Origin: Escherichia coli
GTDB lineage: Bacteria; Pseudomonadota; Gammaproteobacteria; Enterobacterales; Enterobacteriaceae
Length of the DNA: 64,000 nucleotides
Assembly: GCF_044324785.1 (NCBI RefSeq)
Contig: NZ_CP172127.1
Strand: one strand, 5' to 3'
Part shown: positions 9,621 to 9,720 of the stretch, one piece after another
Layout: each line of letters starts with the position of its first letter
How positions within the stretch are numbered: the first letter of the stretch is position 1
Notes under the pieces: model-generated
The model's input: only the letters and a program-made list of their open reading frames with translations
Databases searched by the model: none
What the model was told of the DNA's origin: nothing
Position numbers and translations under genes: made by a program

Positions 9621-9720
9621 CTAAATCAGGAAACAAGCTGTTATATGATAATAACTACGTTGCGATTCTAACATTTAAAATGTTAGACTAATGAGAATCA
9701 GACAGCAACTTTTCCTTTAA

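Follow-up and report, generated by a model that had tools for sequence, protein, structure and literature searches.

Does the perfect 21-bp palindrome that lies just downstream of a prophage Q gene in this Escherichia coli genome serve late gene control, or is it ordinary late-promoter DNA that happens to be symmetrical? A sequence-only reading of the locus had suggested that it could be part of the Q-utilisation (qut) site or a binding site for another regulator. Here we follow that suggestion through the stretch of DNA that contains the palindrome (64,000 nt, hereafter the window) and through related loci in bacterial and phage genomes. Our reading is that the palindrome is probably accidental, a strain-specific dyad within the pR'/qut-tR' cassette of a lambdoid, DLP12-like prophage with a Q of the Q21/Q933W family.

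The palindrome and its position

An inverted-repeat search confirmed a perfect 10-bp inverted repeat with a 1-nt spacer, TCTAACATTT-A-AAATGTTAGA, whose arms are 100% complementary; on the minus strand it reads TCTAACATTT-T-AAATGTTAGA. It lies where it had been placed before, at about 9669-9689, save that the true span of 9667-9687 is 2 bp off. Counted from the Q stop codon (TAA, minus strand, 9723-9721), the palindrome spans nt 34-54 downstream, and 44 nt separate its end from the stem of the terminator. The coordinates of all features are collected in Table 1.

Under a first-order Markov model, the 64-kb window is expected to hold 0.08 perfect inverted repeats with 10-bp arms and a 1-nt spacer, or 0.5 when spacers of 0-5 nt are allowed; three distinct palindromes of that class were observed. 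A perfect dyad is modestly unexpected by chance. The ancestral form with 9 of 10 pairs (see below) is well within chance, about 30 times as many such sites being expected by our own estimate, made without simulation. The other perfect palindromes with arms of at least 10 nt lie at 14882-14905 (TTGAAAGTCTGTCCAGACTTTCAA, inside a ybcK-like recombinase ORF) and 34283-34306 (CCGGATGCGAAAACTCGCATCCGG). A second copy of the Q-proximal palindrome was not found in the 64-kb window, even with up to 3 mismatches, and its half-site is not enriched there (4 observed, 4.45 expected).

Table 1. Features of the locus, in window coordinates unless a related locus is named.
Feature	Position	Strand	Details
RrrD-like lysozyme gene	5907-6404	-	From the annotation of the homologous locus
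EssD-like holin gene	6404-6619	-	From the annotation of the homologous locus
Lipocalin (Blc-like) moron gene, convergent	9041-9565	+	PF08212, E 7e-44; named Lipocalin Blc in Lambda_2E9
Terminator (presumptive tR')	9594-9622	-	AGCCAGCC-TCCCCAAA-GGCTGGTT, then U-run; 9 pairs, 5 of them GC
Conserved 83-nt block	9594-9676	-	Right arm through terminator; 2 of 8 window-versus-2E9 substitutions
Candidate pR' with -10 TATCAT	9645-9672	-	-35-like GTTAGA 9672-9667 (TTGGAA in the common allele); -10 9650-9645; predicted start 9639/9638
Plus-strand promoter-like site	9660-9689	+	TTGCGA, 18 bp, TGtTAGACT; spacer and -10 made of the palindrome
Palindrome, 21 bp	9667-9687	none	Arms 9667-9676 and 9678-9687, 10 nt each, 1 nt between
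Dyad-completing base	9669	-	A in this strain, G in nearly all relatives
Variable 22-nt patch	9677-9698	-	Palindrome centre, left arm and 11 nt upstream; 6 of 8 substitutions
Candidate pR' with -10 TAACAT	9680-9708	-	-35 TTGCTG 9708-9703; 17-bp spacer; -10 9685-9680 (TAATGT in the 2E9 type); predicted start 9674-9672
Q antiterminator gene	9721-10098	-	125 aa from ATG (MRDIQ...); mechanical ORF reaches TTG at 10113
Q933W-type palindrome	L086:112-125 (Sakai Sp5); also L129, L133-L146		About 6-150 nt after each Q stop

Q, its terminator and the prophage context

The gene upstream of the palindrome is a Q gene, as had been assumed: its product matches PF06530 (E 2.5e-51, 173 bits) and the Q21 structures PDB 6P18 and 6JNX (phmmer E 1.9e-8). 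PF06530 was named the Q21/Q933W family by Yin et al. (10.1101/651190). The ATG that gives MRDIQ is the probable start, and Q is annotated from MRDIQ in the relatives. Identity to the Q proteins of Stx phages such as VT2-Sakai and BP-4795 is 81-84%. Among complete E. coli genomes roughly one in five has this Q variant, B strains such as BL21 derivatives among them.

Homologues of ylcG, rusA, ybcO, ninE, ybcN and ybcM/L/K sit upstream of Q, and the prophage is therefore DLP12-like. Past the terminator follow, in order, the convergent lipocalin gene, a YbgA-like gene, a broken AraC-like gene, the holin gene and the lysozyme gene. The last two lie downstream on the Q strand and keep the same order in the phages IdasGreatGrand and Lambda_2E9. 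The AraC-like gene (6808-7546, minus strand), between the YbgA-like gene and the holin gene, is a frameshifted pseudogene in three ORFs; an intact 243-aa version is found in Lambda_2E9. A second intrinsic terminator (6716-6746, minus strand; ACGCCAG-AATAATCG-CTGGCGT and a T-run) lies ~105 nt upstream of the holin gene, and late transcription from near Q would need to read through this one too.

A terminator hairpin past the palindrome had been noted, and a strong, canonical intrinsic terminator is indeed present after Q and on the same strand, at 9622-9594 (minus strand), with a stem at 9622-9599 and a U-run (7 U) to 9594. The hairpin GCCAGCCTCCCC...GGCTGG and its U-run are common to this terminator and to the tR' of Sakai Sp5 and BP-4795. 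At the Sp5 tR', the 3' end of StxS, the pR' RNA, was mapped by Term-seq (Sy et al., PMC7547250). Phage 21 and Sp5 hold pR', a Q-binding element and a pause element in just such an interval, and by analogy with them the region may be regarded as the pR'/qut region it was presumed to be.

In the model that we favour, sigma-70 RNA polymerase would start at pR' within the 127-nt interval and stop at tR', and the RNA would measure about 45 to 80 nt. Q, where present, would load at the promoter-proximal complex and let the polymerase read through the terminator, cross the lipocalin gene in the antisense direction and reach the lysis genes. We also note a 17-codon ORF, MLESQRSYYHITACFLI (9621-9674, minus strand), which opens with an ATG in the right arm, closes with a TAG at the terminator foot and has no Shine-Dalgarno sequence. 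Four of its seven polymorphic sites are synonymous third positions, a weak signal, and for it to be a leaderless message transcription would have to start at ~9674.

The symmetry is not conserved among relatives

In an alignment from the 3' end of Q to past the terminator, the nearest haplotype differs from the window at 9669 alone. The perfect dyad is therefore one transition away from the common allele, which has G at 9669, reads TCTAACATTT-T-AAATGTTGGA on the minus strand and keeps 9 of the 10 arm pairs. The locus is present in 1099 of 5426 complete E. coli genomes. Three of these 1099 contain the exact 35-mer around the perfect palindrome (a 0.3% allele), 748 are one base off it and 110 carry a diverged type; the 9/10 near-dyad is found in about 90% of loci. 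An exact-string scan of viral contigs gave no hit to the A allele (the perfect form) and 37 to the G allele. The isolated phage IdasGreatGrand has the G allele. The three A-allele strains are BEC1-S17-ESBL-07, Ec40743 and PM22; T7Express and NEBExpress, of the BL21 lineage, match the stretch at 96% identity.

The diverged type is that of Lambda_2E9, 1H12 and related isolated phages (hereafter the 2E9 type). It reads ACTAATGTTT-C-AAATGTTAGA, with 7 of 10 pairs; its Q is 97% identical to that of the window, yet 3 of the 10 left-arm positions are changed. A palindrome is cheap to create here because AAnnTT is nearly self-complementary: the 2E9 type has a direct AATGTT...AATGTT and the window an inverted AACATT...AATGTT, and TG versus CA is all that separates the two.

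From the Q stop to the U-run, the window and the 2E9 type differ by 8 substitutions, most of which fall into a short patch that ends at the palindrome centre (Table 1); none of the 8 lies in 9699-9720. By our own calculation the binomial probability of the clustering in 9677-9698 is ~5e-4 before correction for the choice of interval. Past the terminator, divergence climbs again. The right arm therefore marks the border of a conserved island, and the rate of change in the left arm is about that of the flanks. The right arm is best seen as part of a conserved late-promoter/terminator block, either as a -35 edge or as early transcribed, Q-loading DNA, and the left arm as unconstrained spacer. Selection would act on the right arm and the downstream block and not on the symmetry.

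Two further observations concern the variable part of the interval. Haplotypes that are near-identical elsewhere show C, T, G or A at site 9695 (minus strand TT[C]TCAT). Moreover, the 2E9-type spacer ATCATTAGACTAATGTTTCAAATGTTAGAA (L001:3065-3095) matches the Q coding end ATCATTGAAGGTATGTTGATAATGTTAGAA of another Q allele (L056) at 22 of 30 positions (12 tests, uncorrected P 0.009). Recombination may have left the palindrome region as the decayed 3' end of another Q allele, although this match is only suggestive.

Since the palindrome is a rare single-mutation variant whose symmetry is not conserved in relatives, it is most likely ordinary late-promoter DNA and not a regulator site. What survives of the proposal that it is part of the qut site or a regulator site is its location, between Q and the terminator in the presumptive pR'/qut interval. 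The idea of a functional symmetric site is not supported: the dyad belongs to a 0.3% allele, 3 of 10 left-arm positions change, there are no further copies in the window, and loci whose Q has the same putative recognition segment lack such a palindrome. The widespread 9/10 near-dyad could still be a weakly symmetric site. The lesson is that a striking perfect palindrome can sit one mutation from an unremarkable sequence.

Candidate late promoters

Promoters were scored with our own crude sigma-70 position weight matrix (PWM), in which the true pR' of Sp5 and that of phage 21 were both top-ranked, at 10.2. The window allele has four minus-strand candidates in the range 7.2-7.8, with starts near 9713, 9673, 9658 and 9638. 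As 35% of random 200-nt bins reach 7.8, none of these candidates exceeds background. The late promoter of this Q variant is not recognisable by consensus, and mapping it would therefore define a new qut specificity.

Two placements deserve description. The first, which we put forward tentatively as a candidate pR', is GTT(A/G)GA-N16-TATCAT with a start near 9638. It scores 7.4-7.7 in the window and 8.7, the top score, in the common allele. The palindrome would then lie at about -49 to -28, its right arm forming the -35 and its upstream edge. The register matches the layout of the Q933W family, with 9/14 to TTTACGATCGTAAA and TATCAT after a further 8 nt, and a PWM built on that family gives 1.6 bits at this register, a marginal value (P about 0.05) with 56 equal-or-better sites in the window. 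The perfect 14-bp palindrome of the Q933W type is absent from the -35 register, where the window has GTTAGAATCGCAAC (9/14), and no pause-like (-10-like) hexamer follows the start. The 2E9 type has GATCAT where the window has TATCAT.

The second placement, TTGCTG-N17-TAACAT with a start near 9673, fits about equally well and is an only slightly more doubtful candidate for pR'. Its score of 7.66 is at background level; the spacing is optimal and the most important bases are present. Here the palindrome would cover the -10, the start site and the early transcribed region. All 6 substitutions of the variable patch would fall in the spacer, in -10 positions 4-5 or in the discriminator, sparing the -35 and the key -10 positions. 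The placement lies just past the Q stop, behind AAAAG as does the -35 of the Q933W family, and several -10-like hexamers follow it as possible pause elements. When it is transferred to a related locus (type T, see below), the start comes to lie inside the terminator stem of that locus. The remaining probability falls to another site in the interval or to a pR' located elsewhere. The early interval contains the -10-like hexamers TAGAAT, TAGTTA, TATTAT, TATCAT and TATAAC, and whether any of them plays a pause role depends on the position of the start site.

Other starting points were tried and set aside. The extended -10 TGtTAGAAT is unlikely as a general pR' because the common allele, including that of IdasGreatGrand, has TGGAAT and lacks the key A. 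A start at 9689, by analogy with the early region of Sp5, has no usable -10 upstream. Local alignments of the spacer to the pR' regions of Sp5, K-12 DLP12, phage 21 and EH1846 were no better than those of shuffled sequences (P 0.24-0.63), and a likeness to the StxS sRNA upstream of the terminator, though persuasive by eye, was not significant (P 0.11-0.18). As for published start sites, the text portion of the BL21(DE3) transcriptome paper makes no mention of the locus, papers on K-12 DLP12 treat the promoter upstream of essD, and the comparative papers on Stx pR' give no sequence detail in their text portions.

Alternative functions for the palindrome

Twelve Q933W-like Q loci (Trabulsiella, Citrobacter, Pantoea, Providencia, Xenorhabdus and Sp5) carry a perfect palindrome of their own, TTTACG-(AT or TA)-CGTAAA, the left half of which is the -35 of pR'. 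An A-tract precedes it, a TAnnnT -10 comes 8 nt downstream of it in every case, and G-W-TAAG and the start come next. We regard TTTACG-WW-CGTAAA as a candidate Q-binding element of the Q933W type or a candidate site of another dimeric factor. The string has no occurrence in the searchable literature. It bears on Shiga-toxin expression, which the Q933W subfamily drives.

The (near-)palindrome of the window might likewise be the Q-binding element of its own Q branch, with two protomers on inverted arms as TTTACG-WW-CGTAAA might serve Q933W-like proteins. We consider this unlikely. In its favour, the 14-bp palindrome is perfect and overlaps the -35 in 12 loci from six genera. The window Q has RSDCWVGRM where Q933W-like proteins have CSDGHIGKK, a segment that aligns with the region which we take to hold the DNA-binding motif of Q21. 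The right arm is conserved, and TATTAT lies 13 nt past the palindrome end, compared with 12 nt from the Q-binding element to the pause element in phage 21. However, 3 of 10 left-arm positions change between phages with near-identical Q, and the perfect form is confined to the rare allele (0.3%). The best motif common to loci that encode the same Q segment is AATGTTAGAA; in loci of types T, T2 and U, whose Q has this segment (13 residues followed by (M/L)LQKAEG, including RSDCWVGR), it sits inside the Q coding sequence (Met-Leu-Glu codons) and is therefore no evidence of a common binding site. Inverted repeats of at least 8 nt were not found near Q in T and T2, and U has one unrelated 8-bp repeat at the stop codon. 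Moreover, Q21 binds direct repeats and not inverted ones (10.1101/651190). A Q-binding element of the phage 21 type, that is two adjacent 8-bp direct repeats, was not found in 9623-9720; AATGTT occurs twice at 9-bp spacing in the 2E9 type, and the window has that copy inverted.

A wider version of the same idea would see in the window's Q a branch of the Q933W subfamily with switched specificity, and in the near-palindrome its Q-binding element. Inverted sites, TTTACG-WW-CGTAAA in Stx-like loci and TCTAACATTT/AAATGTTRGA here, would then stand against the direct repeats of Q21, the recognition segment of Q changing along with its site. We hold this to be quite improbable.

It is also quite improbable that the palindrome supplies the spacer and extended -10 of a plus-strand promoter, with a start near 9696 and an RNA antisense to the 3' end of Q in a role like that of lambda paQ. 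Its PWM score of 10.1 is the highest in the region, equal to those of the true pR' of Sp5 and phage 21 and within the top 7% of 200-nt bins, and the A/G polymorphism falls in the spacer with no effect on the match. That match, however, is to the consensus of a home-made matrix only, and the site is missing from a separate automated promoter scan. By our own reading the 2E9 type (L001) lacks the TG and has TAGTCT instead of TAGACT, and the -35 has no CII-type TTGC-N6-TTGC box (compare the phage 21 annotation).

A third possibility is that the palindrome folds into a working RNA hairpin in transcripts of the Q strand, from early-operon read-through or as part of the pR' RNA, and serves as a processing or stability element after Q. 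For the window the predicted stability is -7.4 kcal/mol (z -5.5), for the common allele -7.1, and by our own reading all three stem substitutions in relatives are wobble-compatible on the Q strand, for which chance is ~1 in 8. Set against this, the 2E9 type reaches only -2.9 kcal/mol (z 0.06), no better than shuffled sequences, and on that ground a conserved RNA hairpin was rejected. An AU-only stem with a 3-nt loop is weak and no U-run follows it. A search of Rfam gave no family at threshold, the sub-threshold matches being driven by the terminator, and under the TTGCTG-17-TAACAT placement the transcript would begin inside the hairpin. Such a role is very unlikely.

Least likely, and highly improbable, is an operator through which a dimeric host or prophage regulator (for example one of the AraC-like proteins of the locus, or a host factor) controls pR': it would suit the 10+1+10 geometry, the overlap with candidate promoter elements and the AT-rich core CATTT-N-AAATG, which resembles the centre of the 11-1-11 sites of Rrf2-type regulators (NsrR/Rrf2). 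That likeness, however, is confined to the AT core, at 5 of the 11 positions of a half-site. Relatives do not keep the symmetry (the perfect form is in 3 of the 1099 genomes and in no viral contig, against 37 with the G allele; 9/10 in the common allele and 7/10 in the 2E9 type), the 64 kb hold no second site and no half-site enrichment, and no lambdoid late promoter is known to carry such an operator.

Comparison with known late cassettes

Of the late cassettes described, lambda shares the general logic with the window, in which Q is followed by pR', a Q loading site, a pause element and tR'. Lambda qut consists of a Q-binding element between the -35 and the -10 and a pause-inducing -10-like element at +1 to +6 (10.1101/651190). 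However, lambda Q belongs to an unrelated family, PF03589, and there is no sequence relation.

The backbone of the prophage is that of K-12 DLP12: ybcK-L-M-N, ninE, ybcO, rusA, ylcG and Q (quuD), then essD-rrrD. The two Q proteins are 84% identical, and in both loci a convergent moron gene follows Q. Homology ends 18 nt before the Q stop, however, a porin gene takes the place of the lipocalin gene, and the K-12 locus has no counterpart of the palindrome, only ATATAACAG being held in common with the window. In the K-12-type locus (L002:1925-1955) a GC hairpin, GGGGCGTTGAAACGCCCC, with AAAAAT on both sides, splits a sequence that shares AGTTATTA and ATATAACAG with the window; the hairpin looks like a small insertion into an ancestral spacer.

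For the Sakai Sp5 pR', Sy et al. (PMC7547250) reported a dRNA-seq start, a 258-nt RNA and an RNase E site at +173. From the start, the RNA length and the RNase E site we place the first nucleotide at the A of TTTACG-N16-TATCAT-GATAAG-A. The pR'-StxS-tR' cassette of 933W and Sp5 resembles that of the window in its Q (78-84% identical), in its terminator hairpin, in the hexamer TATCAT, the candidate -10 here, and in a similar ATAA(C/G)AG after it in the same register. It differs in its perfect palindrome TTTACGATCGTAAA at the -35, of which the window has 9/14, and in the 258-nt pR' RNA with an extra early hairpin, against an interval of 127 nt. The Q segment is CSDTCIGKR in Sp5 and RSDCWVGRM in the window, and similarity outside the terminator is not significant.

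Phage 21 is alike in several respects. Its Q is of the PF06530 family, an intrinsic terminator lies within ~130 nt of Q on the same strand, a TTG-type hexamer occurs a few nt past the Q stop and late lysis genes follow downstream. Its annotation gives, in the 85 nt after Q, a -35 TTGACA, the Q-binding element, a weak -10, the start site, a pause element TAAGCT and the terminator. The promoter is annotated there, whereas that of the window is not confidently identifiable. The phage 21 Q has ~30% identity to that of the window, the spacers are without sequence similarity, and the phage 21 Q-binding element consists of adjacent 8-bp direct repeats, ATTGAGCA and AATGAGCA, between the -35 and the -10, a repeat that is absent from 9623-9720. 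With its Q family, its terminator and its downstream late genes, the cassette is an uncharacterised, ordinary member of the Q-pR'-tR' class, like those of phage 21 and the Stx phages.
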